A stretch of DNA of 63,733 nucleotides, the filler included. It is 6 parts of 6 records of this genome, joined end to end, with 100 filler letters (N's around TTAATTAATTAA, not from the genome) between each part and the next. Parts side by side here need not be neighbours in the genome. Positions count along the whole stretch, not along the records: positions 1 to 13,772 come from SRR31156797_27420; 5 more parts are not named here. One strand, written 5' to 3'. Made by a program: the position numbers and the translations under genes. Below are positions 492 to 41,896 of this stretch, in pieces (the first letter of the stretch is position 1; each line of letters begins with the position of its first letter). The notes beneath the pieces were generated by a model. That model saw only the letters and a program-made list of their open reading frames with translations. It was not told where the DNA came from and did no database searches.

Positions 492-749
492 ATTAATCTC
501 AATAAATTAATCATAATCACATCGTTTGTTATCGTTATATTTTATTTGGTAGCATGTTCATCGACTCCGCACCAAGTTGCCACGGAGGATATAGCTCCTG
601 GTTGGTCAGGCCAGGCTTACAGCAATTTGTTGTTGATCGGCGCATACACAGACCGCCCTACTCGAGTCAGTTACGAAGCCACCTTTACGGAACGGCTGAA
701 AGATAGGGGCTTCAAGGCAATTCCATTTTATTTACGCGCAATCATATAA
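492..749 (+). pseudogene. Truncated lipoprotein gene
   Basis: Strong RBS AAGGAGGAG (481-489), an in-frame ATT at 492 instead of ATG, a hydrophobic signal peptide ending in lipobox LVAC, and about 55 mature residues. The frame then runs into the antisense of the neighbouring SBP remnant near 727. Confidence 0.5.
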
Positions 750-2040: not shown

Positions 2041-2135
2041 GGAAATCTCCCTTTAAGCATTGATAATAGAAAAAAGTTCCTTCGGGTTATAGCTAAACAT
2101 GATTGTAGAACACCTAATCAGTCATTCCGATAAAG

Positions 2136-3449
2136 CTATAAGCCTGCTTCTGCTGCAGGTTGGATGGCAATATCGCCTACAGAATTCTTCCATGCCTCGT
2201 ACCCGGCATGTTTAAGGGCATTCACGGCCCCGTCAAGGTAGCCGTCTTGCACCATCGTTTGCCATAATAGAGAAACCTGTTTGATATATTCGTTGGGTTG
2301 GATTTCCTCCGCAAGAAACTGCAAATAGCCGTCCGCCCGGCGTTGGCAAATACCGTGGTGTTCTAGCAACTCGTCTTGCCGATAGCTGAAATCGGACCAG
2401 AAGGGACCATCGGTTTTGATCTTTCCGACCAAATCCGCCAGCAGTCTAGCTTCGGGGTCATCATCGTGGAAGGTAAGAAAGGGCATAAAGACAATATGAC
2501 CGAGATTGTCCAAACTGAAGGCGAACTCATCAAGTGATATGCCGTGATTACCTTTTTTGTAAACAGCATATCGAAATTGGTTACCGAGGCCGTTGGTGCC
2601 TGCGATCAAAATGCTGTCTTTTTTAAGAAGTTCGCCAATCCGGACCAGCATTTTCTTTCTGGTTTCGGGTTTGAAGTAAAGCAGAACATTCATACATCTT
2701 ACTACTTGGGCCGGCGGGAGTTTTAGTTCTCCGATATCGGATTTAATGAAAGTAAGGTTGTCTGTCTCAAAATCCCGAATGTGATTATGGATGAGCTTGC
2801 TACCATCCTTTTCTACAGTCTCACTCCTTGTACCTTTCGGATTCTTAAGTAAGGGAATAATGCCTTCAAAGAGTTCTTCAAATCGGCTCATAGTGCTCTG
2901 CGGATCAGAGTACAATGTCCGTCCGCTTAGATTCGTAAGTCCCTGAAAATACTGAAACTCTCCTTGTCGGTTAAAGCAAGCGTAGCATCCATCGCGGTCG
3001 TACAAGATGTATTCATCAAAGGAGGTGTCCACACCAAAAATATGCCAATCGGCAAATCTGCGTGCCGTGTCAGCTGTCGTAACGGGAGGAAAACCACAAC
3101 CGATATCCACGAAAACAGGTGGTTCGTCACAAATATACTGGCATTGATTGGCAACGTAATCGTCGAGCTTTTTATGGCGTTCCGGTAGGGTCAACGGTGG
3201 AATCCGTCCGCCCCAAGAGCTTGGCAGAATACTGGGAACCGTAGTAAAAAGCCATCGGATCAAGGCGGGATTGAACTCAAATGCTGAATAACAGCCTTTT
3301 TTCATTAGCACCAGGGCGCGGGTCATGAAATCTTTGGCGTCTGGTGACAGTTCTGACAAAGAGATGGATTCTGCAATTTGCCTGGGCAAGCTTTGCCCTA
3401 AGTATTCCTCGACAAGCTTATCAAATGTTGGAGGGGATAGTTCCTGCAT
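2136..3449 (-). CDS. Class I SAM-dependent methyltransferase-like protein (CheR-like C-terminal motif)
   Basis: Motif I VDIGCG, acidic GVD after strand 2, and VVRCMNVLLYF...RKKML..IGELLK resembling the CheR CRNVLIYF motif. RBS AGGAG. Confidence 0.6.
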   Translation of the reverse strand: MQELSPPTFDKLVEEYLGQSLPRQIAESISLSELSPDAKDFMTRALVLMKKGCYSAFEFNPALIRWLFTTVPSILPSSWGGRIPPLTLPERHKKLDDYVANQCQYICDEPPVFVDIGCGFPPVTTADTARRFADWHIFGVDTSFDEYILYDRDGCYACFNRQGEFQYFQGLTNLSGRTLYSDPQSTMSRFEELFEGIIPLLKNPKGTRSETVEKDGSKLIHNHIRDFETDNLTFIKSDIGELKLPPAQVVRCMNVLLYFKPETRKKMLVRIGELLKKDSILIAGTNGLGNQFRYAVYKKGNHGISLDEFAFSLDNLGHIVFMPFLTFHDDDPEARLLADLVGKIKTDGPFWSDFSYRQDELLEHHGICQRRADGYLQFLAEEIQPNEYIKQVSLLWQTMVQDGYLDGAVNALKHAGYEAWKNSVGDIAIQPAAEAGL

Positions 3450-3461
3450 GGGACATCTCCT

Positions 3462-4994
3462 TTATTTTCTGAACCAGGCATCAACAATCTGGATAACCCC
3501 GTTTTGAATTTCCGGTATGCCTCTGACTTTTTGGTTTGCAAGAAGATGGTACCGGCGTCCGCCTCGGTATAAAACCGGAACGTCTTCATTCAGCAGGCTG
3601 GCGATATCACAGAGCAGATCTTGCCGTTTCTCAGGATCGGTTTCCATTCGCTGGGCCACTAGCAGCCGATCCATCTCTGGATTGGAATAGCCGGAAACGT
3701 TGGCTCCGCTTTGTGAATGAAAACTTCTGAAAAGATAAGGGCCGAGATCTACCGCAGCCGGGATGCGCCAGGCAGATACATGGTATTTTTTTGAGTATAC
3801 TTTTTTAACGATCGGTCCGATATTCATCCCTCGTGGTACGACATTGATGCCGACCTCCTTGCAGAACTGCTGCAACATCACCCCAAACTCGCGCCCGCGC
3901 TTCGTCTTGGTATGCAGGCATTCAATTTCAATCGGTTGGCCGATTTTTGCGATCAACTGCTCAGCTTTTTCTATATTATGTTTTCGGTAGCCCGCATCTC
4001 CGCAGGGCACCCCATTGCCAAAAGGATGATGGGCGGTCGGGATAGAGTTCTTATAGCTCATGCTTACATAGGTGGACTGGTTCCACGCATGGGCGATGGC
4101 CCGGCGGACACGAGGATCGTCCAAAGGTGGTTTGGTTGTGTTCAGGTAGAAGGTCTCGGCCCCATTGGCATCGCCTTGATAATGTATTAGAGAACTGTCT
4201 TTCTCCGCTTTTTTCAGAATATGTCCTCGGTCCATAAAAATGACATCCGTCTGGCCAGACTGCAGACTGGCAAACCGGGTTTGATGGTCAGGTACCGGTT
4301 TGAATTTGATTTCATCGAGATACGGTCGTCCCTTTCTCCAGTAGTTCGAATTTTTAACCACGACAAGCCGATCACCGGATTTCCACTCCTTGAACATGAA
4401 CGGTCCTGTGCCTACCGGTGCTCGCATTTGCACTCCGGAGTCAACTGCATTCGGAGAAGGGATATAGCTTGTCAATGTACGTGTATCCGCCAGAATTTTT
4501 GGAAAGGGGAGCCACGCATGCGTCAGAACGAAACGGACTGTGAAATCGTCGACTTTTTCTACAGCCCGGATGGGTGCGACTTGGGAGCGGCCCCGAAATT
4601 TATTTTCAGGATTTAAAAGGCGTGACCAGTGGTGTACCACCGCATCGGCGTTAAACGGCGCGCCGTCGTGAAATAAGACACCTTGTCGAAGTGTTATCGT
4701 CCAGGTCTTATCATCCGGCGAAGACCTTGCGGATAGCCCGAGAACGGGGATCAGATTTTTTTGGCTATCTAAATCGAAAAGCCTTTCCTGAATCGTGCCG
4801 TTTACAATCGAATCACAAATAGTGAGCGCGTTTACCGATAGTACATCGAACCCACGAAATTCATTTTCAGCACCAAATGTCAGGGTGCCACCGGATTGGC
4901 GGGTTGCTGCTTTGGCCATATCTTGCGTATATGGAATCACCATGTTGGTTAGAGCGAATATGACCAATAAGACTCGGTAGCGCATTGGATACAT
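3462..4994 (-). CDS. ABC transporter substrate-binding protein, family 5 (peptide/nickel)
   Basis: Signal peptide, GGTL, LRQGVLFHDGAPFNADAV, PVGTGPF and PPLDDPRVRRAIAHA motifs. Confidence 0.93.
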   Translation of the reverse strand: MYPMRYRVLLVIFALTNMVIPYTQDMAKAATRQSGGTLTFGAENEFRGFDVLSVNALTICDSIVNGTIQERLFDLDSQKNLIPVLGLSARSSPDDKTWTITLRQGVLFHDGAPFNADAVVHHWSRLLNPENKFRGRSQVAPIRAVEKVDDFTVRFVLTHAWLPFPKILADTRTLTSYIPSPNAVDSGVQMRAPVGTGPFMFKEWKSGDRLVVVKNSNYWRKGRPYLDEIKFKPVPDHQTRFASLQSGQTDVIFMDRGHILKKAEKDSSLIHYQGDANGAETFYLNTTKPPLDDPRVRRAIAHAWNQSTYVSMSYKNSIPTAHHPFGNGVPCGDAGYRKHNIEKAEQLIAKIGQPIEIECLHTKTKRGREFGVMLQQFCKEVGINVVPRGMNIGPIVKKVYSKKYHVSAWRIPAAVDLGPYLFRSFHSQSGANVSGYSNPEMDRLLVAQRMETDPEKRQDLLCDIASLLNEDVPVLYRGGRRYHLLANQKVRGIPEIQNGVIQIVDAWFRK

Positions 4995-5046
4995 AGTATT
5001 TCCCTCCTCAATCCATTTTTAGCGATGACGGCCAAATCTCTTTACT

Positions 5047-5682
5047 TCATCTCGTTTTGCCTTGTAGCCTTGCCCTTATCTCAGGAGAAACCCTCTTGGT
5101 TATCTCGTCTAACTGATCCCCACGTACTGATAATCCGTCGATAAGAATTTCACTGCACAATGAGACCATTCTTCGAATCACCTTCTCGTCATCATAGGCA
5201 CCTACAAAGCCTGAACTAACTGAAACGGCAATGCCATGCGTCAACAACGCCCGCATGTGTCGGATCCAGCCGACATGTTCGGCTGGCAGGTCTTCAAAGG
5301 CCGGGTGATTTCCCAATTGAGCCGTTGTAAACTGCCAGAATCGCATCCTTCGTTCGATAATTTCCTCGATCTTCCCATAGTGCATGCAACTGAAAATTTG
5401 ACCATGATCCCTGGCAAAAAGGACATATCCGATACCTTGATCTACCCAGGTGTCTCCGGTATATTTGCGTGAGGCATATTCCGCTATAATTTCCCATGCC
5501 CGATTCATGATTGCGGTTTTGAAATCATTCATCGTTGCGAAATGAGAAAAGATGGGCATAGTGGATGCGCCTAGTTTCTTCGCGACTGACTTGGGTGTAA
5601 GGCCTTCCCATCCGTTTTCTTTCAATTGTTCGAGGCCCGCTTCAATCACGTTCGCCTTGGTATATTGTACCTTTTTCGGCAT
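5047..5682 (-). CDS. TetR/AcrR family transcriptional regulator
   Basis: N-terminal HTH (VIEAGLEQLKENGWEGLTPKSVAKKLGASTMPIFSHF). Divergent from the ABC permease genes. Confidence 0.9.
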   Translation of the reverse strand: MPKKVQYTKANVIEAGLEQLKENGWEGLTPKSVAKKLGASTMPIFSHFATMNDFKTAIMNRAWEIIAEYASRKYTGDTWVDQGIGYVLFARDHGQIFSCMHYGKIEEIIERRMRFWQFTTAQLGNHPAFEDLPAEHVGWIRHMRALLTHGIAVSVSSGFVGAYDDEKVIRRMVSLCSEILIDGLSVRGDQLDEITKRVSPEIRARLQGKTR

Positions 5683-5699
5683 CGGCTCTTGCTCCGGAA

Positions 5700-5750
5700 T
5701 ATAAATAGTTTTAGTTATATAGTTGACGTTATATAATTACAGCTATATAA
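5700..5750. promoter_or_regulatory. Candidate tandem TetR operator in the divergent promoter
   Basis: TA(A/T)ATA hexamers at 5702, 5716, 5730 and 5744, an exact 14-bp period, forming overlapping TATATA-N8-TATATA dyads. Confidence 0.45.
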
Positions 5751-5863
5751 TTTCAACAGTTTTTCCAATTTCACTTGCCACATAACATATCTTTATTGGG
5801 AAGGCGTTCTTAGTTGACAAACCGAGTGATACGAGCAACTCACTCCTTGCAATCAGGAATCTT

Positions 5864-6808
5864 ATGGTTAGAAAAGCGATTCGATTGGCGGCAGTAATTC
5901 TGGCCGTCACCTGTATCACTTTCCTGATGGTCGATCTGATGCCAGGCGATGTGGCCTACCTTATTGCTGGCCAGGAGGCCTCTTTGGAAGATGTCCGTGC
6001 CATTCGGGAGGAACTCGGGCTCGAGCAACCGATTGTTATCCGCTATCTCAAATGGCTGGCCCAGGTCGCCGGGGGCAATCTGGGGCGTTCTTACCTCACC
6101 AACGAGCCAGTGCTGGATGCGATTGTTTATCGCCTACCGGTCACACTTGAGCTGATGCTTCTGGCCCAGTTGCTGGCACTGGGTTTGGCGATTCCGACCG
6201 GTATCTTCTGTGCCTACCGGCCAAGATCGATGGGCGATAAGGCCATCGGATCGGTTGCCTTTGCGACCATGTCCGTTCCCGTATTCGTCATGGCCCTGGT
6301 TCTCATCCTGTTGTTTGCTCTGAAGCTGCGCTGGTTTCCGGCCACCGGGTACATCCCCTTTTCCGAGGGGCTGTGGCCCAATATCAGGTCCCTCATTCTG
6401 CCTGCCGTTAGCATTGCCATGGTCGAATGGGTGAGCCTGATGCGGGTGCTGAGAAGCGACATGATCTCAACGCTTCAGGAAGACTACATCCTAATGGCAA
6501 GATCCAAGGGATTACCGGCCTCCCACATCTTACTCCGGCATGCCCTGCGTCCCTCCCTATTTACCCTCATCACTATCCTGGGCATGCAGATAGGGCATTT
6601 GATCGGAGGGTCGTTGATCATAGAGGTTATTTTTGCACTGCCAGGGATCGGTCGCTTGTTGGTCGGGGCCATATACGGGCAGGATTTAATGATGGTCCAA
6701 GGCTGCGTTTTGCTGATTGCCGTGGCCTATGTGGTCGTGAATTCGCTGGTTGATTTATGCTATTTCCTGCTGGATCCCAGGATCCGAAGGGAGGGTTCCG
6801 TTGGCTGA
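5864..6808 (+). CDS. ABC transporter permease (DppB/OppB-like)
   Basis: MPGD, LGLEQP..IRYLKWL, GNLGRSY, EAA-type loop DYILMARSKGL, IEVIFALPGIG, LLDPRIR. Confidence 0.93.
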   Translation: MVRKAIRLAAVILAVTCITFLMVDLMPGDVAYLIAGQEASLEDVRAIREELGLEQPIVIRYLKWLAQVAGGNLGRSYLTNEPVLDAIVYRLPVTLELMLLAQLLALGLAIPTGIFCAYRPRSMGDKAIGSVAFATMSVPVFVMALVLILLFALKLRWFPATGYIPFSEGLWPNIRSLILPAVSIAMVEWVSLMRVLRSDMISTLQEDYILMARSKGLPASHILLRHALRPSLFTLITILGMQIGHLIGGSLIIEVIFALPGIGRLLVGAIYGQDLMMVQGCVLLIAVAYVVVNSLVDLCYFLLDPRIRREGSVG

Positions 6809-7775
6809 TGATATCACCGGGGTGAACCTCTCGACACCAGGTGAAGAAGATCACGGGAAAATGCCGCAGGATGTCCCCGATACTGTCATTGGACGCAAAT
6901 CCCTGCACGCTGCCATGGGCGAATCCTTCTGGCTGGCCACCATGTGGCTTTGCATCGTGGCCGTTCTGGCGGTTACGGCAAATTTATGGCCCCTGCCCGA
7001 ATTCGATCATATGGACTGGCAGTATCAGGCGGCAATGCCGGGTACGGAAAGCCGGGCTCCCCTTAAAGACAGCCGCGGGAAAACAATCGAATCGGCTTTT
7101 GTCTATCTGCTGGGCACGGATACCATGGGGAGGGATATTGTCACCCGGCTTATCTTCGGCGCCAGGATTTCCCTAACCGTGGGCTTGGCGGCACCCTGCA
7201 TCGGCATGCTGCTGGGTGGAATTCTGGGCATGCTGGCCGGATTTTACCGGGGGCGATTAGACGCATTCATTATGGTGGTCATGGATACCATCCTGGCCTT
7301 TCCGGGTATCGTCCTCCTGCTGGTTATTACTTTCTACTTAGGCCCTGGTCTGCGAAATATGATATTCGCATTGGGACTTTTGACCATTCCACATTTCTCG
7401 CGGGTTGCCCGGGCCAACACCTTGAAGGTTGCCGCCCAGGAGTTCGTTACCAGTGCGCGTATGATAGGGCAGTCCGACGTCAGTATCATGCTCCGGGAAA
7501 TTGTGCCCAATATCAGTATGCCTCTGATCGTATACGCCTTGATAGTGGTGGCTTACATGATCGTGGCGGAAGGCGTCTTGAGTTTTTTGGGATTGGGTGT
7601 GCCCGCGCCGACGCCGAGTTGGGGCGGCATGATAGCGGAAGGCAAGGAGGTGCTTGAGGAAGCCCCCCACATCAGCTTGCTTCCGGCTCTGGTGATGTTT
7701 CTGACCGTGCTTGCATTCAATGTTATCGGTGATTCCCTGAAACGTGTCCTCGATTCCAAAGAGGGGCAGCTATGA
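6801..7775 (+). CDS. ABC transporter permease (DppC/OppC-like)
   Basis: LGTDTMGRD, GARISL, EFVTSARMIG, LSFLGLGV..PTPSWG. Likely TTG start at 6801 after AGGGAGG. Confidence 0.92.
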   Translation: MADDITGVNLSTPGEEDHGKMPQDVPDTVIGRKSLHAAMGESFWLATMWLCIVAVLAVTANLWPLPEFDHMDWQYQAAMPGTESRAPLKDSRGKTIESAFVYLLGTDTMGRDIVTRLIFGARISLTVGLAAPCIGMLLGGILGMLAGFYRGRLDAFIMVVMDTILAFPGIVLLLVITFYLGPGLRNMIFALGLLTIPHFSRVARANTLKVAAQEFVTSARMIGQSDVSIMLREIVPNISMPLIVYALIVVAYMIVAEGVLSFLGLGVPAPTPSWGGMIAEGKEVLEEAPHISLLPALVMFLTVLAFNVIGDSLKRVLDSKEGQL

Positions 7776-8779
7776 GTCCGGCTGTTCAGTATGGCGACCA
7801 CCCGTTGCTGCATGTTGCCGACCTGTGTGTCCGCCTGCCGACTGATCATGGTGTTGTGCATGCACTCAACGGTGTGTCTTTCACAATCGGCAGCCAAAAA
7901 ACACTCGCCATCGTTGGGGAGTCCGGATGCGGCAAGAGCGTCCTCTGTCGCACGATACTGGGCCTGCTTCCTCAAAGGGCGATTATTGCCCCGACGTCGA
8001 AAATCAGTTTCAATAGTAGGGATCTTATCGGGCTTGGCGAAACCGATTACAACCAAATCAGGGCCGCGGAATTAGCCATGGTATTCCAGGACCCGCTCTC
8101 GGCGCTTAATCCGGTTATAAAAATTGGCCGGCAAATCACTGAAGTCCTCATCCATCATAAAAAAATGACTCTGGCTGCGGCCCGACACCGGGCAATCGAC
8201 CTGCTGCAATCGGTAGAAGTGCCCGATCCGCAAAAGCGTATCGACCAGTATCCCCATCAACTGTCCGGCGGCATGCGGCAGAGAGTCGCTATCGCCATTG
8301 CACTCGCCTGCAAGCCGCAACTGCTGATTGCCGATGAACCGACCACCGGACTGGATGTCACTGTCCAGGAAGGCATCCTGGATCTGCTCGGTGAGTTGCA
8401 GGCAAAAAGTAGGATGGCCATAATTCTGGTTACCCACGATTTACGAATGGCCGCCAGCCGTGCTCACCACATTGCTGTGATGTACGCGGGCAAAATTGTT
8501 GAGCAGGCCCCTGCTGTGACTCTTTTCAATCATATGGCCATGCCCTATACCAAAGCGCTGATCGATACGATTCCGAGCCTTGACAACAGACCACACACAC
8601 CGCTCAATTCCATAAACGGCCAGCCTCCGAATCTTATTGGTCCCATATCCGGATGTGCATTTGCACCGCGATGTTCCCGGGTGAAGGAGCAATGCTATTC
8701 CAGCTCGCCGCTTTTGCTACCCGGTCCGGAACATGACCACCTGGTTGCATGCTGGTATCCGCTGGGAGGCCCAGCGTGA
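7772..8779 (+). CDS. ABC transporter ATP-binding protein (DppD/OppD-like)
   Basis: Walker A GESGCGKS, LSGGMRQR, ADEPTT, C-terminal GCAFAPRC Cys motif. Confidence 0.95.
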   Translation: MSPAVQYGDHPLLHVADLCVRLPTDHGVVHALNGVSFTIGSQKTLAIVGESGCGKSVLCRTILGLLPQRAIIAPTSKISFNSRDLIGLGETDYNQIRAAELAMVFQDPLSALNPVIKIGRQITEVLIHHKKMTLAAARHRAIDLLQSVEVPDPQKRIDQYPHQLSGGMRQRVAIAIALACKPQLLIADEPTTGLDVTVQEGILDLLGELQAKSRMAIILVTHDLRMAASRAHHIAVMYAGKIVEQAPAVTLFNHMAMPYTKALIDTIPSLDNRPHTPLNSINGQPPNLIGPISGCAFAPRCSRVKEQCYSSSPLLLPGPEHDHLVACWYPLGGPA

Positions 8780-9753
8780 TGGGCCATACTGAAATTATAC
8801 TGGAGATACAAAATCTCATCGTGGAATATCGGGCCAGTAAAGGGCGTAAGGTCCACGCAGTTTCCGATGTCAGTTTTCAGTTGGCAAGGGGGAAGACACT
8901 GGGCCTAGTTGGCGAGTCTGGTTGCGGCAAGTCTTCCGTGGCAAAGTCGATTATCCAGCTTCCCACTCCCACATCCGGGACGGTCCTTTTTAATGGTGAA
9001 GACCTGACCAAAATCAACGGCAAACGCCTGCGCCAGGTCAGACCCCAATTACAAATGATTTTCCAGGACTCGATTTCGGCATTGAATCCCAGAAGAAAAA
9101 TTGGCAATACGATCGCCATGCCCCTCAAGATTATTGGCGAGGGGACACCTGCGGAGAGAAAATCGGTGGCGTGCAAAATGATGACCGCAGTTGGACTCAA
9201 TTCGGAAAATTTTGAGCGGCTGCCGTTCCAGCTCTCCGGAGGCCAGTGCCAGCGAGTTCAGATCGCACGATCGTTGATTACGAAACCTTCTCTTTTGATC
9301 TGCGACGAGCCTGTATCTTCACTTGATGTCTCTATACAGGCCCAGATCCTCAATCTCATAGAAAAGCTGCGCACCCAGTACACGCTATCGATCCTGTTCA
9401 TTTCACATGACATGGCTGTGGTGAAAAATGTATGCGACCGGGTGGCCGTAATGTATCTGGGAAAACTTTGTGAGGTCGCTCGGACGGAAGATCTCTATAA
9501 AATACCAACCCACCCGTATACGCAAGCGCTGATCAATGCGATCCCGAAAAAGGCCGCGGCACCTCATGCAAAAAAAACAAACCTCAAGAACGCTGAACTT
9601 CCTTCTCCTATTAATCCGCCATCTGGTTGCAGGTTTCATACACGCTGTCCCAACGCACGACCGCTTTGTTCTGAATCCGAACCAGTTTTACTAAAAATGG
9701 AAAGGGGCAGGATGGTAGCCTGTCACTTCCCCTTAGAGTCTTGTCAAGTTTAG
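8776..9753 (+). CDS. ABC transporter ATP-binding protein (DppF/OppF-like)
   Basis: GESGCGKS, LSGGQCQR, CDEPVSSLD, HPYT, PSGCRFHTRC. Confidence 0.95.
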   Translation: MMGHTEIILEIQNLIVEYRASKGRKVHAVSDVSFQLARGKTLGLVGESGCGKSSVAKSIIQLPTPTSGTVLFNGEDLTKINGKRLRQVRPQLQMIFQDSISALNPRRKIGNTIAMPLKIIGEGTPAERKSVACKMMTAVGLNSENFERLPFQLSGGQCQRVQIARSLITKPSLLICDEPVSSLDVSIQAQILNLIEKLRTQYTLSILFISHDMAVVKNVCDRVAVMYLGKLCEVARTEDLYKIPTHPYTQALINAIPKKAAAPHAKKTNLKNAELPSPINPPSGCRFHTRCPNARPLCSESEPVLLKMERGRMVACHFPLESCQV

Positions 9754-10056: not shown

Positions 10057-11460
10057 TCAATTCACACGACTTGAGTTCGCGCGCAAGCACTCGGCCGACG
10101 GGCTGTTTTGAACCATTGTTTGAGCGGCATGGCGCACACCGCGATACAATTGGTCCAACTGTTTGAACAGATCGTGTTCGACAAATCCGCCCGTAGGCCG
10201 GATCGGTCGTTTATAGTAGAATGAGAGCCAATCCTGGTAGCCGTGCCAATCGCAACGCGCGGCCAGGTCCAGAAACAGGGCCACGTCCAATACAAGCGGG
10301 GCGGCCAGAATACTGTCGCGGCAGAGAAAATCAATCTTGATCTGCATGGGGTAGCCCAACCAGCCGAAGATGTCGATGTTGTCCCAGCCCTCTTTGTTAT
10401 CACCGCGTGGTGGATAGTAGTTGATTTTCACCTTGTGGTACAGGTCGGCATACAAATCGGGGAACTGATCCGGCTGAAGGATATGCGTGAGCGCACTCAG
10501 CTTGGTCATCTCTTTGGTTTTCAGCGATTGCGGTTCGTCCAGCACCTCGCCGTCCCGGTTTCCCAGGATATTGGTCGAAAACCAACCTGAAACGCCCAGC
10601 ATGCGCGCCTTGAATGCCGGTGCCAGCACTGTCTTCATCATGGTTTGGCCGGTCTTGAAATCTTTGCCACTGAGGGGCACACTGTGTTTCTCCGCCAGCG
10701 CCTGAAGGGCGGGAATCTCTTCGGTTAAATTTGGCGCCCCATTGGCAAAGGGAACGCCTTCGCAAATGGCCGCGTAGGCATAGATCATGCTGGGGGAAAT
10801 ATCCGGGTGATTGCCTTGCAAACCGGCCTCGAATGCAGCTACGGACCGATGGACGGATCCAGGCTGCAAATAAGCTTCTGTGCTCCCGCACCAGATCATG
10901 ACCATACGTTCCACATGGTTGGCTGATTTAAATGCCTGGATATCCCTTCGGAGTTGATCGGCGAGATCCATATAGGTTTTACCCGATTTAACATGACCGC
11001 CGTCGAGTCGCGCAACAAAACGGCGATCAAAAACCGCCGTCATGGGCCGTATCGCTTCGAGTTCGGGTCGGATTCGATCCAGAATCCTGTGATCAAGGAC
11101 CCCGGCGGTGACGGCAGCCCTGTACATGTCCTCTTCGAAGATGTCCCACCCACCGAAAACAAGATCGTCCAGTCGGGCCAGGGGAACGGCTTTCCGAATG
11201 GCCCGGGTGGATTCAGTAGCGCTCTCGTCCAGGGAAAGACGCCCCAGTTGTGACAGGGAGCCGACGGGTTTTCCCAGGCTACGGCGAACGGCGAAGACAC
11301 CGCCGATAAAGGTCGTCGCCACGGCGCCCATACCCGGCATCAATACGCCCAGTCGACCGCCGGGGCCAGCGGTAGAGGGTGCCGGTGCGGATTTTCTCTG
11401 GTCGTTCGTTTCATCGTACACGTGTAGGCTACCCCTTCGTTTTTCGTTGCGGTTGTCCAT
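10057..11460 (-). CDS. ino1: Inositol-3-phosphate (myo-inositol-1-phosphate) synthase
   Basis: GMGAVATT Rossmann motif, FGGWD, WCGSTE, NGAPN, GKDFKTGQT, STNILGNRDG, GDNKEGWD, CRDSILAAP. Start is likely 11460 (ATG) or 11421 (GTG), not 11547. Confidence 0.93.
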   Translation of the reverse strand: MDNRNEKRRGSLHVYDETNDQRKSAPAPSTAGPGGRLGVLMPGMGAVATTFIGGVFAVRRSLGKPVGSLSQLGRLSLDESATESTRAIRKAVPLARLDDLVFGGWDIFEEDMYRAAVTAGVLDHRILDRIRPELEAIRPMTAVFDRRFVARLDGGHVKSGKTYMDLADQLRRDIQAFKSANHVERMVMIWCGSTEAYLQPGSVHRSVAAFEAGLQGNHPDISPSMIYAYAAICEGVPFANGAPNLTEEIPALQALAEKHSVPLSGKDFKTGQTMMKTVLAPAFKARMLGVSGWFSTNILGNRDGEVLDEPQSLKTKEMTKLSALTHILQPDQFPDLYADLYHKVKINYYPPRGDNKEGWDNIDIFGWLGYPMQIKIDFLCRDSILAAPLVLDVALFLDLAARCDWHGYQDWLSFYYKRPIRPTGGFVEHDLFKQLDQLYRGVRHAAQTMVQNSPSAECLRANSSRVN

Positions 11461-12226: not shown

Positions 12227-13450
12227 TTATACCTTGGCCACGACCGAGCGGTAGGCCGTCATCGTTGCCTGCGCTGTGCGACGCCAGGTATAGTCACTCA
12301 CGCCTCTGCGGATAACATGCGGTGCCCAGCCGGGGCCGTCGTTTTCATTGGCAGCAACGATAGCCTCTGCCAGCGCGGCTGGGGATCCCGCTGTCATCAC
12401 CACACCGGCTCGACGCCTGTTTGCCAGGGTCTTCATGATACCCACCGGCGTCGTGACCACGGGTCGACCGCACGCCAACGCCTCCAAGCCAACCAGGCCG
12501 AAACTTTCATAATGAGATGCCAAAACGAGCATATCCATCGCCGCATAATACTCAGCCAGCTCGGTCTGTGGCACACTGCCACAGAAGCGTACCTGCGACA
12601 CGATGCCCAATTCATCCGCCAGTTGGTACAGGCGAGTTTGCTCAGGATCGCCCTGGCCGTTACCACCGACAAAAATCAATCGCGCGTGGTATTCGTCTCC
12701 AAGTCGGGCCATCGCCTCGATGATTCGGTCCTGGCCCTTCTGGGGTGTCAGACGGCCAACGCAAAGCAGCATCAGATCCCTCATATCGATCCCCAGTCTC
12801 TGTCGCGCCGAAGGCTTGTCCATGGGCTGAAAACGCTGCCTGTCGACACCGCCCGTAACCAATGTTGCTTTACCGGGGTCAGCCTTATAATAATGCATCA
12901 TATGGTTCATTTCACCCTCGCACGGCACCAGCAAGCCGTCACATTCATCGACCAGTGCCTGTTCTTCTGCCAATCTCCGGGGGGGAGCGGCCGCACCGAC
13001 TCCTGTATTGGTTTTGAGGGCCGCCAGCGTGTGGAAAGTGATCACATGGGGACGACGCCATGATCGACGCGCCAACCGCCCCACACGCCCGGAGATCCAG
13101 TAGTGGCTGTGGACCAGGTCATAGGTGAGCGATCGACGGAGGCGGAACGACTCGATGGCCGCAAAGGTCTCTTTGCCGTAATCGTAAAGATCCGCTTTGG
13201 ACACCTGTCGTCCACCGGCGATATCGAGCAGGACCAGGCGAACGTTGGGTGCCAGAAGAGTCATCTCCGGGCTGTTCGCATCCGTACGGCGGGTGAAAAT
13301 ATCCACCCGGTGGCCTGCGCGGCCCAACTCACCGGCCAAGGCGTTTATGTAAACGCTCATCCCGCCCGTGTCGCGTGTACCCAGCGTTCCCATCGGACTG
13401 GAGTGGATGCTCAGCATGGCAATGGATAAGGGGGGCATGGGACGGTGCAT
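12227..13450 (-). CDS. mshA: MshA-like GT4 glycosyltransferase (D-inositol-3-phosphate glycosyltransferase-like)
   Basis: SIHSSP.GTLGTRDTGGMSVY (MshA: SVHTSP..QPG.GDAGGMNVY), VDIFTR, HSHYWISG, TFHTLAALK, VGRL.PQKG, SHYESFGLVGLEALACGRPVV. Confidence 0.8.
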   Translation of the reverse strand: MHRPMPPLSIAMLSIHSSPMGTLGTRDTGGMSVYINALAGELGRAGHRVDIFTRRTDANSPEMTLLAPNVRLVLLDIAGGRQVSKADLYDYGKETFAAIESFRLRRSLTYDLVHSHYWISGRVGRLARRSWRRPHVITFHTLAALKTNTGVGAAAPPRRLAEEQALVDECDGLLVPCEGEMNHMMHYYKADPGKATLVTGGVDRQRFQPMDKPSARQRLGIDMRDLMLLCVGRLTPQKGQDRIIEAMARLGDEYHARLIFVGGNGQGDPEQTRLYQLADELGIVSQVRFCGSVPQTELAEYYAAMDMLVLASHYESFGLVGLEALACGRPVVTTPVGIMKTLANRRRAGVVMTAGSPAALAEAIVAANENDGPGWAPHVIRRGVSDYTWRRTAQATMTAYRSVVAKV

Positions 13451-13454
13451 TCCT

Positions 13455-13772
13455 TTACCGGTTCAGTACGATGACGCAGCGAGTGATGGTAACCGGTTTT
13501 CCACCCAACCGCCGTTTGTAGGCTTCGGATCCCTTGAGAAAATCGTAGGTCCGCCATCCATTGCGTAGGCTGTCCTTGATCGTGAGCACCTTGCTCAGCA
13601 ACCCAACGCTCAGGGATCGAAATGCGTCGTCGTAGCCATTGTTGTACAGATAAACGGTTGACCCATGGGCGATGCAAAACGTCGCCGCGATGGTTCGGTC
13701 GTCCAGGTCGAGAAAATAGAGTTTCAGGAATCCCCCGGAAGCCAGGTTCAGCGCCAGAGAGCGAAAAAAGGC
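13455..13772 (-). CDS. GNAT-superfamily protein, Acetyltransf_6/CelD-BcsL/FemAB-like (C-terminal 105 aa, partial; absent from the ORF track)
   Basis: My own translation from the contig edge: AFFRSLALNLASGGFLKLYFLDLDDRTIAATFCIAHGSTVYLYNNGYDDAFRSLSVGLLSKVLTIKDSLRNGWRTYDFLKGSEAYKRRLGGKP...*. It has the typical YLYNxGYD, SxGLL and YDFLKGxExYKxRLG motifs. Its stop is 4 bp before the mshA ATG. Confidence 0.85.
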   Translation of the reverse strand, partial: AFFRSLALNLASGGFLKLYFLDLDDRTIAATFCIAHGSTVYLYNNGYDDAFRSLSVGLLSKVLTIKDSLRNGWRTYDFLKGSEAYKRRLGGKPVTITRCVIVLNR

Positions 13773-13872
13773 NNNNNNNNNNNNNNNNNNNNNNNNNNNN
13801 NNNNNNNNNNNNNNNNTTAATTAATTAANNNNNNNNNNNNNNNNNNNNNNNNNNNNNNNNNNNNNNNNNNNN
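13773..13872. other. Artificial contig linker
   Basis: 44 N + TTAATTAATTAA (stops in all six frames) + 44 N. Confidence 0.99.
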
Positions 13873-14793
13873 GAAACCGAGAGAAGCGCAAAAACTGTAA
13901 AAGGTGCTTTTCAGCTATTGAAAACATCCCATGTAATTGATTTTCTTATGAAGAACCACATTGGTCAGAACAGGGGTTCTACTTTAAGGGAGTTATATTA
14001 CATCTCTGAGAACTGGGATATAGCTAAGTTTAAAGAGCAACCGGAAAGTGACAGGCTAATAGAGGATCTCGAGATAATATCCGGTCTCCAGAGGGAGTAT
14101 TTCCATATGCGTCCGGAAGAAGATGGAGCTACCATGTTCGGCCCTATAAGGTTGCGTGAGGAAACAAAGCGCGGTGATCGTATCATTCATTGTCAGGAGG
14201 ACATTGGAGAAAGTGGCTATCAAATCCCTTTCAATGTGGAGAATATTGAGTTTCTGGATACGGATGCTAAGTTCATTATTGCCATTGAGACTGGTGGTAT
14301 GTATGCCAGGCTTATAGAGAATGGATTCGATGAAAGAAATGATGCAATACTGGTTCATCTTAAAGGTCAGCCTGCACGTTCAACCCGTCGAATAATCAAA
14401 AGAATGAATGAGGAGATGAACTTGCCTGTTGTGGTGTTCACTGATGGTGATCCCTGGTCATACCGTATATTCGCATCAGTTGCATATGGAGCGATAAAAA
14501 GTGCTCACCTTTCGGAATATATGGCGACACCGGGTGCAAAGTTTGTTGGTGTCCAGCCATCAGATATAGTCGAATATGAGCTTTCCACTGACAAATTGAC
14601 AGACAAGGATGTTGCAGCTCTGCGTAGTGAGCTTACAGATCCAAGGTTTGAAAGTGATTACTGGAAAGAGCAGATAAAACTTCAGCTTGATATCAACAAA
14701 AAAGCAGAACAGCAGGCCTTTGCAGGAAAAGGTCTGGATTTTGTTACTGACAGGTATCTTCCTGAACGTCTTACAGAACTCGGAATTCTTTAA
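13873..14793 (+). CDS. top6A: DNA topoisomerase VI subunit A (5' partial)
   Basis: STLRELYY (catalytic Tyr), Toprim [27 protein letters not shown]. The frame is open from the contig edge. Confidence 0.95.
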
Positions 14794-21390: not shown

Positions 21391-21490
21391 NNNNNNNNNN
21401 NNNNNNNNNNNNNNNNNNNNNNNNNNNNNNNNNNTTAATTAATTAANNNNNNNNNNNNNNNNNNNNNNNNNNNNNNNNNNNNNNNNNNNN
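21391..21490. other. Artificial contig linker
   Basis: 44 N + TTAATTAATTAA + 44 N. Confidence 0.99.
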
Positions 21491-22505: not shown

Positions 22506-24299
22506 CTATTCTGCCCCCCTGTATCGCAGCCGTTCAGCAGTTTGCGCCATGTCTGGATTTTGGCCGAGCGTATTAAAATAAAGCATCATATACGCTGCGG
22601 TGGGAACTCTGAGATCCCAATCCATGGGCATGACGTTTCCTTCTCCAAAAAACGGGTACAAATCCGTTAACACGGTCCTGATGCCGTTTCTCAATGCTGC
22701 CGGTATCCCTTCTCCACCTTCGAGATAGTAGCCTGACATAACTTGGTCAAGGGATGTTCCCCTGCGAAGCCTTATGTAATGCGCTGTCCGCGAAGCTCCG
22801 AAATGACTGATGCGAAGCGGCAGCCCGTGCTCCTCTCGGAGCATATTTTCGGTGATGATGTCTTCTTGGGGGATTCCATAAGTTGTTTCCATCGTCTGGC
22901 CCTCAAACAGCCCCCCCTGTCCCCTGAGCGTAAACCCTGTCTGACCGGTGATGGTGAGAAGCTCTTCGGGTTCCGTTGGAAGGCCGGTAGCAGGATCAAT
23001 CGGTTGAAGTGTTCCGAACATATCCCCAAATAACCCCTGCGCCTTGGAAGGGGAGAGGCTCTGCCCACGGGCATAATGGAGTGCGTGGATCAACTCGTGG
23101 CCCAGGGTGATTTCATCAGGTGATTCAGTAATCTCAGGTTGTTGTTCCGTACCGGTGAGAACCGAGGATTCGCTGAGCTGAGAATAGTTGATCCTGACCG
23201 TCGACCCAATGGGTTCACCTGAACGATGCTGTTCAGGCTCGGGCTGCCCGCCTTCAGTATTGCTGGTGATCAACCGCCCTGCAGCCGGATTTTCCGGATC
23301 AACATCCGCTTCCACACCGGTTTCACCTTCTGTACTTTCCAGTCTGATGGATTGACCGGTGGCCAATAACTCTACCACTATCCTGAACCCCACAGGTCTG
23401 CTTGCCAGCAATCTGAACTGGCTGTCGGCCCAATTGGCAAACTCGGGCGCTGTTTCGTCCACCCTTATACTAGTGTTTCCCTGCATAATGGAATCAATGA
23501 CCAGATCCTGATAAGCCGTATAAAATTCGTGCCGATCCCGGCGATGCATTCCGGCGATCATGGTCCAGTCACGTTCACGCACAGCCAGTTCCCATTCAGC
23601 GCCAAGAACAAGAAGCGATCCGGAAGGGGCATCATCACGCAATCGCTGGAGATCTGATGTACTTAAATCGGAAAGTTCTCCTGCCAGACTGTAAGCGCTG
23701 TCAATATCTGAAAGCCTTTGAAGAAGACTCACTTCTTCATCAGTGCAACTTTTGATGCAGCGTTGCAGCTTCAAGCCGGATTTTAAACGGGGAACAGCAT
23801 TGAGGTAAATCTCTCCCAGCAAGGTACGCAGGTTACCGAACATTCTGCTGACAGCCACCATCGCCGCCATATCAGCCTCTTTTTCCAAGAGGCCTGGTGG
23901 TTGAGTGTCTATGCTCTCGTTTCTTCCGTTTGTCTGCTGTTGTGCCACATGTGCCAACTCATGGGCGATAAGCCCGTCGCCGGCAGGAGTACCCGGCCTG
24001 TATGCCCCCCGGGCAAAAGCAATATCATTGCCTATCGTAACGGCCTGGGCCTGAATACGATCCGTCAACCCAGCTGCCTTATCATTGGTATGTACTCGTA
24101 CATCGGAAAAATCACGGCCGTAAATACCGCCCACGGCACTACTGACATGGGAACGCAGCGGAATCCCTGACTGGTGAAGAAACAGGGGCATGCCTGCTGG
24201 AGCACCTTGGTTTTTAACCAAAGTTTCCGTTCTATTGGATTTTCTCCGCGAAGCGGTCGGTGTTTTCTTTATTTTCGTTGTTATTTTGTTATTCCGCAT
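22506..24299 (-). CDS. DUF4157 (eCIS core) domain protein with a C-terminal M91/NleD-like Zn-metallopeptidase; putative toxin
   Basis: DFSDVRVHT...AQAVTIGNDIAF..GAYRP...LIAHELAHVAQQ (DUF4157), then LGHELIHALH...EELLTITG...ITENMLREEHGLPLR (M91-like). Confidence 0.8.
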   Translation of the reverse strand: MRNNKITTKIKKTPTASRRKSNRTETLVKNQGAPAGMPLFLHQSGIPLRSHVSSAVGGIYGRDFSDVRVHTNDKAAGLTDRIQAQAVTIGNDIAFARGAYRPGTPAGDGLIAHELAHVAQQQTNGRNESIDTQPPGLLEKEADMAAMVAVSRMFGNLRTLLGEIYLNAVPRLKSGLKLQRCIKSCTDEEVSLLQRLSDIDSAYSLAGELSDLSTSDLQRLRDDAPSGSLLVLGAEWELAVRERDWTMIAGMHRRDRHEFYTAYQDLVIDSIMQGNTSIRVDETAPEFANWADSQFRLLASRPVGFRIVVELLATGQSIRLESTEGETGVEADVDPENPAAGRLITSNTEGGQPEPEQHRSGEPIGSTVRINYSQLSESSVLTGTEQQPEITESPDEITLGHELIHALHYARGQSLSPSKAQGLFGDMFGTLQPIDPATGLPTEPEELLTITGQTGFTLRGQGGLFEGQTMETTYGIPQEDIITENMLREEHGLPLRISHFGASRTAHYIRLRRGTSLDQVMSGYYLEGGEGIPAALRNGIRTVLTDLYPFFGEGNVMPMDWDLRVPTAAYMMLYFNTLGQNPDMAQTAERLRYRGAE

Positions 24300-26307: not shown

Positions 26308-26309
26308 GG

Positions 26310-30397: not shown

Positions 30398-30497
30398 NNN
30401 NNNNNNNNNNNNNNNNNNNNNNNNNNNNNNNNNNNNNNNNNTTAATTAATTAANNNNNNNNNNNNNNNNNNNNNNNNNNNNNNNNNNNNNNNNNNNN
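30398..30497. other. Artificial contig linker
   Basis: 44 N + TTAATTAATTAA + 44 N. Confidence 0.99.
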
Positions 30498-41796: not shown

Positions 41797-41896
41797 NNNN
41801 NNNNNNNNNNNNNNNNNNNNNNNNNNNNNNNNNNNNNNNNTTAATTAATTAANNNNNNNNNNNNNNNNNNNNNNNNNNNNNNNNNNNNNNNNNNNN
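41797..41896. other. Artificial contig linker
   Basis: 44 N + TTAATTAATTAA + 44 N. Confidence 0.99.

Follow-up and report, generated by a model that had tools for sequence, protein, structure and literature searches.

A Fem-like transferase gene found in many anaerobic bacteria directly upstream of mycothiol-like sugar-inositol genes

Mycothiol is considered a thiol of actinobacteria. Little is known, as far as we are aware, of the low-molecular-weight thiols that predominate in sulfate reducers and many other anaerobes, and the mechanism by which BshC ligates cysteine has yet to be resolved. MshC is described in the literature as a CysRS paralogue of class I whose reaction depends on ATP and involves no tRNA. 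As for Fem-type enzymes, the accessible portion of a review reports that the known ones use Gly, Ala, Ser and Leu, that a helix with positive charge in the second GNAT domain binds the acceptor stem, that FemX has a catalytic Lys305 and DhpH-C the pair Phe328-Lys329, and that Orf11 (Sbb17) moves Gly from Gly-tRNA to the amine of an amino sugar. Here, we describe a Fem-like gene that, in many anaerobic bacteria, immediately precedes a set of mycothiol-like sugar-inositol genes and whose product may attach cysteine by a hitherto undescribed route.

The window, that is, the whole stretch of DNA that was analysed (63,733 nucleotides, filler included), consists of six contigs joined via N runs and a TTAATTAATTAA linker. 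One of them ends within a gene for a FemX-fold (Acetyltransf_6/FemAB_like) transferase of about 335 aa, of which the C-terminal third is present (Table 1). The frame runs into the N spacer and its 5′ two thirds are missing; a tblastn search for the missing part and for upstream genes, extended to the five remaining contigs, gave the known fragment only. Because the frame abuts the N run, it is absent from the ORF listing, even with open ends allowed. At the other end, the reverse complement of 13448..13457 was read directly as TAAAGGAATG, so that the stop codon (13457..13455) is separated by 4 nt, AGGA, from the ATG (13450..13448) of the next gene. This AGGA probably serves as a ribosome-binding site, and with so short a gap the two genes may be translationally coupled. 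The sequence-only reading had described a 105-codon open frame from the contig edge that was missing from the ORF track, ended 4 bp before an mshA-like gene and was of Acetyltransf_6 rather than MshD type; all of these points were borne out by the translation, the direct read and the family searches given below.

Table 1. Features of the window around the Fem-like gene fragment
Feature	Position	Strand	Evidence or remark
Fem-like gene, 3′ part	13455..13772	minus	105 sense codons + TAA; translation without internal stop
Artificial spacer	13773..13872	.	N runs + TTAATTAATTAA linker; contig end cutting the gene
AGGA spacer	13451..13454	minus	Between the Fem-like stop and the GT4 ATG; direct sequence read
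MshA-like GT4 glycosyltransferase, 407 aa	12227..13450	minus	TIGR03449 MshA, 295.8 bits, whole length
PIG-L/LmbE-family de-N-acetylase, 244 aa	11480..12214	minus	PF02585, E 2.2e-27
myo-Inositol-1-phosphate synthase (MIPS)	10057..11460	minus	PF07994, E 2.3e-88; PF01658, E 1e-32; last operon gene

Among 839 candidates, 529 database proteins match the fragment at E ≤ 0.001, the best being P0002, a 331-aa metagenome protein with 90% identity over 100% of the fragment. The extent of the full gene, whose recovery from homologs had been proposed earlier, can be read from such relatives, which are about 331–350 aa long and carry both PF13480 and PF04339. The fragment itself matches PF13480 (Acetyltransf_6) with an E of 7.6e-22 and 78.5 bits (cut-off 22), its residues 1–87 covering profile positions 57–143 of 143, and full-length relatives reach 94.9–113 bits. 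PF04339 (FemAB_like, cut-off 27 bits) scores 31.9 bits in the relative from locus L001 and 25.9 in P0002, while FemAB (PF02388) stays under its cut-off of 24 in three of four relatives (11.2, 12.0 and 19.0 bits) and gives no match in the fourth. With E values up to 10, the remaining Pfam matches were FemAB_like, FemAB (11–19 bits) and Mig-14 only, none of the classical acetyl-CoA GNAT families being among them. Additionally, an NCBIfam search of the fragment returned no match to MshD (TIGR03448) or any other family, P0002 likewise had no TIGR03448 match, and the Fem-like family gave a single, weak NCBIfam match, at 38.7 bits, with BspF, a crotonyl-transferase.

Sequence searches against solved structures were uninformative (no hits for the fragment and a best E of 1.1 for the family profile) and, therefore, the fold was compared through an AF2 model of the full-length relative P0002 (pLDDT 92.3) instead of the window fragment. 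This model is closest to FemA (Z 21.5), FemX (21.4 and 19.4–19.9) and Sbb17/Sba18 (20.4–20.5), followed by L-PGS/MprF (17.1–19.3), with an rmsd of 3.1–3.9 Å over 263–295 residues for the whole set and of 3.6–3.9 Å over 281–295 residues for FemX/FemA. By contrast, the acyl-CoA tandem GNATs VipF (Z 14.7), GlcN N-acetyltransferase (13.4) and MshD (13.3 and 12.4) superpose with an rmsd of 5.5–7.7 Å (5.5–6.2 Å for MshD). Foldseek agrees with this ranking. As modelled, the Fem-like protein has the double-GNAT fold of aminoacyl-tRNA transferases, which is in line with its earlier description as FemAB-like.

Several sequence features are shared by the family. A Tyr-Lys dyad near the C-terminus, Y311-K312 (fragment residues 85–86, within AYKRRLGG), does not vary in any of 15 sequences, among them relatives at 28–30% identity. 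At the same level of identity, a basic helix, RHExRRKxR(R/K), is still nearly invariant. K312 may be the counterpart of FemX Lys305, an equivalence of position only. The motifs YLYNNGYD and YDFLKG[ST]E are conserved strongly enough to serve as search patterns for finding loci.

The gene that follows the fragment is predicted to encode a UDP-GlcNAc:inositol-phosphate GlcNAc transferase. Of 44 families, MshA is its best match, well ahead of GlcN-PG synthase (96.4 bits) and BshA (86.7 bits), with a score that lies under the MshA equivalog cut-off of 462.5 bits. Its nearest solved relative is the MshA of C. glutamicum (3c48/3c4q, E 1e-68), and it is identical at the positions aligned to N25, K78, Y110, H133, T134 and R154, which we take to be the inositol-phosphate-binding residues of that enzyme. 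The PIG-L protein is predicted to free the amine of GlcNAc-inositol; it belongs to its Pfam family, and its top NCBIfam matches, BshB1 (89.8 bits, cut-off 182.5) and MshB (30.2 bits, cut-off 224.35), are below the equivalog scores. The open frame of MIPS extends to a GTG at 11547, overlapping the PIG-L gene, and we therefore take the ATG at 11460 as the probable start from the translation; relatives align from about residue 29–38 of the long frame.

This arrangement is repeated in relatives, most of the genomes searched being MAGs. Among loci with room, a GT4 gene comes directly after the Fem-like gene in 68 of 75 from genomes and in 53 of 53 from metagenomes, and still does so where identity falls to about 30%, so that the linkage to an mshA-like gene on which the sequence-only reading depended is retained. 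PIG-L genes are found within 4 kb in 52/63 genome and 15/27 metagenome loci, and MIPS lies downstream in 16/51 and 7/18, respectively. The gene after GT4 is usually PIG-L, followed in the lineage of the window by MIPS, which was not found in two of five carriers searched. In a phylum sample, 10 of the 11 Fem-like genes whose surroundings were examined directly adjoin an MshA-like GT4. Seven Fem-like proteins from this sample are 31–35% identical to reference ones by BLAST, and one GT4 adjoining such a gene scores 351.6 bits for MshA versus 115.4 for BshA. Altogether, the cluster is spread over at least three phyla, Desulfobacterota, Nitrospirota and Chloroflexota.

Other genes accompany the cluster less regularly. 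An MshD-like tandem GNAT (100.5–105.9 bits) is encoded inside 8 of 80 genome loci, sharing the cluster with the Fem-like gene in L016, L036, L044, L061, L062, L070 and L078, and a GloB-like MBL hydrolase (101.7 bits) is present in some clusters. The operon of relatives also holds two ThuA/Gfo-type oxidoreductase genes, with an IolG-like match of 96.1 bits. Beyond the contig end of the window, some 225 further codons of the Fem-like gene would be expected, and then two ThuA/Gfo genes like those of L101, a locus with 86.5% nucleotide identity. A scan of 36 loci for tRNA genes found no tRNA(Cys), one tRNA-Leu and one tmRNA. Apparent fusions of the Fem-like protein to GT4 in G031, G146 and G207 (frames of 704–711 aa) were rejected as overlapping frames in GC-rich DNA.

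Upstream, within 4.3 kb, 44 of 47 genome loci and 21 of 23 metagenome loci with room encode a protein in which a peptidase-S51 fold is joined to the anticodon-binding domain of CysRS (S51+CysS_C), a new observation here. PF23493 matches 23 of 24 members, the family profile matches CysRS residues 338–486 (E 1.2e-8 to 2e-6) and Foldseek matches the CysRS-tRNA(Cys) complex 1u0b. In fact, the counterparts of E. coli CysRS R423, D436, R439, D451, G455 and W458 are invariant in 24/24 members. Invariant residues are also found in the S51 domain, namely S139, H183 and E222, whose counterparts in 6nqc, a cyanophycinase-like protein, are likewise S, H and E. In the phylum sample of 201 genomes, the Fem-like gene is found in 20 of the 24 with S51-CysS_C versus 17 of the other 177 (Fisher p 6e-14, not corrected for kinship), which leaves four with S51-CysS_C and no Fem-like gene. 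The association is also broken in the opposite direction, as no S51-CysS_C hit was obtained in G191, G082, G111, G146 and G207, where the Fem-like gene adjoins GT4; the assemblies of G007–G009 yielded no full-length copy. Neither GT4 nor PIG-L was seen near the S51 gene in four genomes that have it on a different contig from the Fem-like gene, nor in three examined genomes lacking the latter. The family has at least 7991 relatives, named only ‘hypothetical’, ‘peptidase E’ or ‘cyanophycinase-like’, which according to the Atlas are also found in Actinomycetota, bacteria that do have MshC; the neighbours of unlinked copies (AAA/SMC, Macro, CcmF, TPP enzymes, PNP) are uninformative. Because this conserved neighbour carries a CysRS anticodon-binding domain, the idea of Cys-tRNA as a donor gains weight. 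The assignment of cysteine, and thus the putative donor, comes from the neighbour protein and not from the Fem-like protein.

Canonical thiol genes were searched for in carrier genomes of relatives, in place of the source genome of the window. MshC did not exceed its curated cut-off in any of 15 carriers, nor did BshC in 10; in five carriers, neither MshD nor GshB exceeded its cut-off and GshA (PF04262) was not found. The suggestion that carriers would lack mshC was thus upheld, and the combination of canonical mshC and mshD, which had been named as part of a possible refutation of the sequence-only reading, did not appear in these genomes. All the computational checks put forward with that reading went the way it had predicted. 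Four of five Nitrospirota/Chloroflexota carriers have, away from the Fem-like cluster, a CysRS paralogue of about 410 aa without the anticodon domain, an MshC-like architecture that could correspond to an MshC-type ligase; none was seen in 10 Desulfobacterota carriers.

The identity of the gene, its fold class, the synteny and the absence of canonical MshC and BshC are the observed basis for the pathway that we propose. We suggest, tentatively and giving it a little under an even chance, that the Fem-like enzyme carries out a Cys-tRNA-dependent cysteinylation of GlcN-inositol in an MshC-independent, mycothiol-like pathway, whose acceptor, donor, amino acid and product we infer. The Fem-like gene would be co-transcribed with those building glucosaminyl-inositol: MIPS would produce inositol phosphate, the MshA-like GT4 would attach GlcNAc to it, a HAD phosphatase (in relatives) would strip the phosphate and the PIG-L enzyme the acetyl group. 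The Fem-like enzyme would then form an amide on the freed glucosamine amine with an aminoacyl group from an aminoacyl-tRNA, most likely Cys-tRNA(Cys), giving Cys-GlcN-inositol, a mycothiol-type thiol for which subtracting the acetyl group from mycothiol (486 Da) gives about 444 Da, without MshC or BshC. The S51+CysS_C protein may recognise tRNA(Cys), either as a partner presenting the tRNA or to perform a second catalytic step. Where an MshD-like tandem GNAT is inside the cluster, the Fem-like gene is better cast as a replacement of MshC than of MshD, the two roles that had been considered for it. Counting against the proposal are the GNAT-clan membership of PF13480, the R-x-L-S-x-G stretch, the weak BspF match, the carriers with no S51-CysS_C hit and the genomes with S51-CysS_C but no Fem-like gene, the truncated CysRS paralogue, the MshD-like tandem GNAT of some loci, the carriers in which MIPS was not found and the lack of a tRNA(Cys) gene in the 36 loci scanned. 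A more far-reaching version, which we regard as rather doubtful, is that Desulfobacterota, Nitrospirota and Chloroflexota have a tRNA-dependent route to a mycothiol-like thiol, be it Cys-GlcN-inositol or a tailored form of it, with no ATP-dependent ligase, the FemX-fold enzyme taking cysteine from Cys-tRNA(Cys) and S51+CysS_C, with its intact serine-hydrolase domain, selecting or processing the tRNA.

Other explanations have to be weighed against Cys-tRNA-dependent cysteinylation. The Fem-like protein might be an N-acyltransferase using acyl-CoA or an acyl carrier, which would transfer an acetyl or another acyl group either to GlcN-inositol, the product being a solute or the head group of a glycolipid, or to the amine of the cysteine, in an MshD-like last step. 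PF13480 belongs to the GNAT clan, the weakly matched BspF is an acyl-CoA enzyme, the Foldseek hits include 2wpw (TM 0.52), a tandem GNAT with AcCoA, and an R-x-L-S-x-G stretch, presumably at the place of the motif with which GNATs bind CoA, is kept across the family; since most clusters have no MshD-like gene, the MshD-like step would be otherwise vacant in them. We nevertheless consider this reading unlikely, as every CoA-dependent tandem GNAT is, by fold, 5–8 Z units further away than the tRNA-dependent enzymes, no classical acetyltransferase family is matched even weakly while FemAB is, and a mechanism of Fem type, as far as the accessible review describes it, would accord with the basic helix and the Tyr-Lys dyad that the family conserves. 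Furthermore, the Fem-like and MshD-like genes coexist in seven clusters.

It is also conceivable, if clearly improbable in our opinion, that cysteine is ligated by another protein, either S51+CysS_C, which would use Cys-tRNA in the manner of a serine acyl-enzyme transferase, or the truncated CysRS paralogue, and that the Fem-like enzyme adds a second aminoacyl group to the cysteine amine to give a dipeptidyl-GlcN-inositol. The operon would then hold two amide-forming candidates, and the S51 domain does keep its Ser-His-Glu triad and is fused to a tRNA(Cys)-recognition module. However, GT4 and PIG-L are tied to the Fem-like gene and not to the S51 gene, as seen in the unlinked copies and in the five genomes with no S51-CysS_C hit, and the CysRS paralogue is remote from the cluster and was not seen in the 10 Desulfobacterota carriers. 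Even less probable, we believe, is that the amino acid which the enzyme takes from a tRNA is not cysteine but, for instance, Gly, Ala or Ser, giving rise to an aminoacyl-GlcN-inositol that would be a solute or an envelope building block instead of a redox thiol. Such amino acids are the substrates reported for known Fem-type enzymes, the Gfo/ThuA sugar or inositol oxidoreductases suggest further tailoring of the sugar, JGI names the relatives CelD/BcsL cellulose-biosynthesis acetyltransferases and, in the part of the literature accessible to us, a GT4 and deacetylase pair makes GlcN-phosphatidylglycerol in Pseudomonas. Against it, tRNA(Cys) is the sole amino-acid-specific signal in the operon, the GloB-like and MshD-like neighbours point to a thiol and membrane or export genes are not constant parts of the cluster. 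The GlcN-phosphatidylglycerol (gpgSD) alternative itself was ranked low because the GT4 of the window fits MshA three times better.

Our full-text literature searches uncovered no paper dealing with PF23493, with the thiols of the carrier lineages or with a gene of Fem type next to mshA-like ones, and PF13480 appeared in one paper, on Brucella BspF. If Cys-tRNA-dependent cysteinylation proves true, it would be a third, tRNA-dependent solution to the cysteine-ligation step, would extend GlcN-inositol thiols to anaerobic sediment bacteria and would provide a function for the large unnamed S51+CysS_C family. The more far-reaching version would, in addition, be the first case of a redox cofactor made in a tRNA-dependent way and would make S51+CysS_C a new class of tRNA(Cys)-binding enzyme.

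When compared with known systems, the Fem-like protein shares the Pfam family, and its relatives the database name, of CelD/BcsL and other Acetyltransf_6 proteins, but cellulose-synthesis genes are not found near it, and we know of no demonstrated chemistry behind that family name. The C-terminal domain of MprF/aminoacyl-phosphatidylglycerol synthase is of the same fold class and its chemistry is tRNA-dependent; MprF differs in its lipid acceptor and fused membrane flippase domain, the Fem-like protein being soluble and stand-alone. Like MshD, it has two GNAT domains per chain and would act late in a GlcN-inositol pathway, although the structural distance, the missing TIGR03448 match and the separate MshD-like gene beside it in some loci set them apart. 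With MshC and BshC it would share the proposed step, the formation of an amide between cysteine and a deacetylase-freed amine, and it adjoins MshA-like and MshB/BshB-like genes, but neither MshC (TIGR03447) nor BshC (TIGR03998) is homologous to this GNAT-fold protein.

The likeness to FemX and FemA comprises the same double-GNAT fold over the whole length (Z 19.4–21.5 for the P0002 model), the weak PF02388 matches and, putatively and as far as the accessible review describes them, a C-terminal aromatic-Lys dyad and a basic helix. By contrast, identity is 11–16%, the PF02388 scores lie below the FemAB gathering score, there is no coiled-coil arm, the context is a sugar-inositol operon and not cell-wall genes, and the use of tRNA is putative. 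Orf11/Sbb17 (BD-12, streptothricin-type), about 290 aa long, belongs to actinomycete secondary metabolism, has another acceptor and amino acid and lacks GT4, PIG-L or MIPS partners. Nonetheless, it superposes on the P0002 model with a Z of 20.5 (rmsd 3.5 Å, 276 residues) and, according to the same review, combines the FemX fold with the aminoacylation of an amino-sugar amine from Gly-tRNA; by analogy, it would be the nearest mechanistic precedent for the Fem-like protein.

The open frame at the edge of the first contig, which ends at position 13772, is a piece of a real gene, because it matches Pfam Acetyltransf_6 (E 7.6e-22, profile positions 57-143 of 143), 529 of 839 candidate database proteins match it at E≤0.001, and the closest of them, a protein of 331 aa, is 90% identical. 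Its relatives are named in databases "CelD/BcsL family acetyltransferase" or "GNAT family N-acetyltransferase". Only AGGA (4 nt) separates its stop from the ATG of a gene for an MshA-like glycosyltransferase (GT4), followed on the same strand by genes for a PIG-L deacetylase and a myo-inositol-1-phosphate synthase (MIPS). The sequence-only reading had described a 105-codon frame at the contig edge, 4 nt before an mshA-like gene, and every detail was borne out (translation, Pfam assignment, relatives and downstream genes). The six contigs appear mutually unrelated (GC range 33-61%), and there is probably more than one organism in the window, since the contigs differ in GC and the second one (GC approximately 35-40%) opens with a gene for a topoisomerase VI subunit A of archaeal type. 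On the third contig, an AAA ATPase of 689 aa and two large proteins that match no Pfam family lie next to a protein combining an eCIS core domain with a Peptidase_M91 region.

For the 407-aa GT4, MshA is the best of 44 NCBIfam families (295.8 bits along its whole length, with a cut-off of 462.5), the BshA score being 86.7 bits. Corynebacterium MshA is the closest solved structure (E 1e-68), and the residues aligned to its N25, K78, Y110, H133, T134 and R154, which we take to be binders of inositol phosphate and sugar nucleotide, are all kept. The top NCBIfam match of the deacetylase is BshB1 (89.8 bits). Next to the operon, the first contig carries a peptide ABC transporter set of the Opp/Dpp type and a TetR-like gene, and in some relatives ABC ATPase genes sit between GT4 and MIPS.

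Homologues of the Fem-like gene were expected to be linked to mshA-like genes, and this expectation held. A search limited to a single genome for each species gave 145 relatives, of which the best 80 loci were kept; MAGs of Desulfobacterota predominate among their hosts, which also include some Nitrospirota/Thermodesulfovibrionia, a single member of Chloroflexota and a single one of Planctomycetaceae. Among loci whose flanks were long enough to be scored, an MshA-like GT4 starts at most 700 nt downstream on the same strand in 68/75 genome and 53/53 metagenome loci, PIG-L lies within 4 kb in 52/63 and 15/27, and an inositol-phosphate synthase is found downstream in 16/51 and 7/18, respectively. 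Seven genome loci have no adjacent GT4 (L048, L049, L061, L063, L067, L077 and L080). In a 201-genome phylum sample, the GT4 directly adjoins 10 of the 11 Fem-like genes whose surroundings were examined (G094, G128, G119, G047, G191, G082, G111, G031, G146 and G207; the exception is G175). The linkage persists despite sequence divergence, as seven Fem-likes of this sample compared by BLAST share 31-35% identity with the reference Fem-likes.

The nearest relative of the first contig, locus L101 (1307 nt aligned at 86.5% nucleotide identity), has two ThuA/Gfo oxidoreductase genes immediately upstream. The order in the next nearest relatives is HAD phosphatase, short S51 protein, a peptidase-S51 domain fused to a CysRS anticodon-binding domain (S51+CysS_C), two oxidoreductases, Fem-like, GT4, PIG-L and MIPS. 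A pair of Gfo/Idh/MocA genes, of which the first carries a fused ThuA-like domain, stands between the S51+CysS_C and Fem-like genes in 34 of the 80 genome loci, and their top family is inositol 2-dehydrogenase-like (IolG-like, 96.1 bits). Desulfosarcinaceae-type clusters carry the short second S51 protein and the HAD phosphatase upstream of the S51+CysS_C gene.

Coordinates of features in the window and in related loci (L-numbers)
Feature	Sequence	Position	Strand	Remarks
Fem-like gene fragment	window	13455..13772	-	open frame, 105 codons, TAA stop
N spacers	window	13773-13872, 21391-21490, 30398-30497, 41797-41896, 57666-57765		joins
Peptide transporter set and TetR-like gene	window	728-9753		two SBP_bac_5 genes, two permeases, two ATPases
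Topoisomerase VI subunit A	window	13918-14793		second contig
eCIS/Peptidase_M91 neighbourhood	window	22506-26358	-	third contig; the eCIS/Peptidase_M91 protein has 597 aa
Gfo/Idh/MocA genes	L001	5271-6923		and following gene
Gfo/Idh/MocA genes	L024	5244-6971, 6961-7974		
Short S51 protein	L002	2595-3446	+	283 aa, best family cyanophycinase, 66.8 bits
Short CysRS paralogue	L185	5991-7229	+	
Short CysRS paralogue	L184	6236-7381	+	
PALP-CysRS fusion	L084	1495-3375	-	also ORFs of ~765-793 aa in G001, G003, G004, G006-G009

Where at least 4.8 kb of upstream sequence is available, the same strand codes for the S51+CysS_C protein (approximately 417 aa) in 44/47 genome and 21/23 metagenome loci. The protein belongs to a large family without a name that is highly conserved (mean column identity 67%, 24 sequences). 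Its N-terminal 260 residues have a peptidase-S51 fold, matched by Pfam in 20/24 members and by Foldseek to cyanophycinase-like 6nqc, peptidase E and cyanophycinase (target-normalised TM 0.64-0.78); S139, H183 and E222, all invariant, correspond in the alignment to Ser, His and Glu in 6nqc. The C-terminal 125 residues are a CysRS anticodon-binding region (PF23493 in 23/24 members): the family profile matches three CysRS structures (E 1.2e-8 to 2e-6, CysRS residues 338-486), Foldseek gives a match to 1u0b, a complex of CysRS with tRNA(Cys), and the positions corresponding to R423, D436, R439, D451, G455 and W458 of E. coli CysRS, several of which are presumably anticodon contacts, are invariant. 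Among the 201 genomes, 24 hold S51+CysS_C and 20 of these also a Fem-like gene, found in 17 of the remaining 177 (Fisher p 6e-14, uncorrected for shared ancestry). GT4 and PIG-L are tied to the Fem-like gene, not to the S51+CysS_C gene: neither was found near the S51 gene in four genomes with both genes on different contigs, nor in three of four genomes with S51+CysS_C and no Fem-like gene, and GT4 still adjoins the Fem-like gene in five genomes without an S51+CysS_C match (G191, G082, G111, G146 and G207).

The Fem-like protein, of which 20 relatives align over approximately 331 residues (mean column identity 60%), is not MshD, MshC or BshC. It is a member of Pfam Acetyltransf_6 and, judged from the AF2 model (pLDDT 92.3) built for its closest full-length relative, has a predicted FemABX fold without FemABX sequence membership: the FemAB Pfam model matched weakly (11-19 bits in 3/4 relatives, cut-off 24), and no classical acetyltransferase Pfam family matched the relatives even at E up to 10. 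The top Foldseek matches were FemX, the soluble domain of MprF, and Sbb17, a peptide synthase that depends on aminoacyl-tRNA. With a second aligner, the matches fell into two clearly separate classes. Aminoacyl-tRNA transferases reached Z 21.5 (FemA), 21.4 and 19.4-19.9 (FemX), 20.4-20.5 (Sbb17/Sba18) and 17.1-19.3 (L-PGS/A-PGS/MprF), all with rmsd 3.1-3.9 A over 263-295 residues, and 2hqy (function unassigned) is the sole other match in this upper group. The acyl-CoA tandem GNATs scored 14.7 (VipF), 14.0 (MAB_4324), 13.4 (glucosamine N-acetyltransferase), and 13.3 and 12.4 (MshD), with rmsd 5.5-7.7 A. In an alignment of GT4-adjacent Fem-likes that reaches down to 28-30% identity, a Tyr-Lys dyad approximately 20 residues before the C-terminus (residues 85-86 of the fragment) is among the invariant positions, and a basic helix (RHExRRKxR) is almost fully conserved; both are equated with FemX-type features by position only.

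Carriers of the operon had been suspected to lack mshC, and the searches agree: MshC exceeded the cut-off in 0/15 carrier genomes and MshD in 0/5, with BshC in 0/10, GshA in 0/5 and GshB (over cut-off) in 0/5, these genomes being mostly MAGs, in which absence is weaker evidence than presence. The MshC-model matches in carriers are CysRS-like, as in 13-14 of 14 control genomes. A tandem GNAT gene whose best family is MshD occurs in 8/80 genome loci, one in-cluster protein covering the whole MshD model (105.9 bits). MIPS is present elsewhere in three complete chromosomes and was not found in two MAGs. Additionally, a CysRS paralogue of approximately 410 aa (range approximately 380-412) without the C-terminal anticodon domain is encoded by 4/5 carriers from Nitrospirota/Chloroflexota, always adjoining a MATE transporter gene far from the cluster; it scores 284-301 bits for cysS (cut-off 340) and 174-187 for MshC, resembles MshC in architecture, and could be an MshC-type ligase in these lineages. 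Desulfobacterota carriers have, besides an ordinary CysRS of approximately 490-520 aa, a PLP-dependent (PALP, cysteine-synthase-type) domain fused to a complete CysRS (catalytic, DALR_2, CysS_C), which may be a dedicated Cys-tRNA supplier.

In the pathway that we propose, GlcNAc would be added to inositol phosphate from MIPS, the product would be dephosphorylated and then de-N-acetylated, and the amine thus freed would be acylated by the Fem-like enzyme. That this enzyme acts on the GlcN amine within the pathway is probable. An aminoacyl-tRNA is favoured as its donor because of the predicted fold, the conservation of the dyad and helix, and the precedent of Orf11 (Sbb17), which, according to a review, transfers glycine from Gly-tRNA onto the amine of an amino sugar; the chances of this donor seem evenly balanced. 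Cysteine is favoured because of the tRNA(Cys)-module neighbour, a GloB-like hydrolase and the MshD-like GNAT, and the full statement, that the Fem-like enzyme uses Cys-tRNA in a GlcN-inositol pathway, is tentative, its chances falling somewhat short of even.

A CoA-dependent acyl transfer by the Fem-like enzyme is rather unlikely. It is doubtful, to a greater degree, that cysteine is ligated by the S51+CysS_C protein or by a paralogue of CysRS, with the Fem-like enzyme performing a second aminoacylation. Least expected is an aminoacyl product with an amino acid other than cysteine; the S51+CysS_C protein is the sole amino-acid-specific signal in the operon.

A full-text literature search returned nothing on a Fem-like gene with an mshA-like operon arrangement. 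The operon resembles mycothiol biosynthesis in its MshA-like, deacetylase and inositol-phosphate-synthase genes, but differs from it in the ligation enzyme, the tRNA(Cys)-module protein and the hosts.
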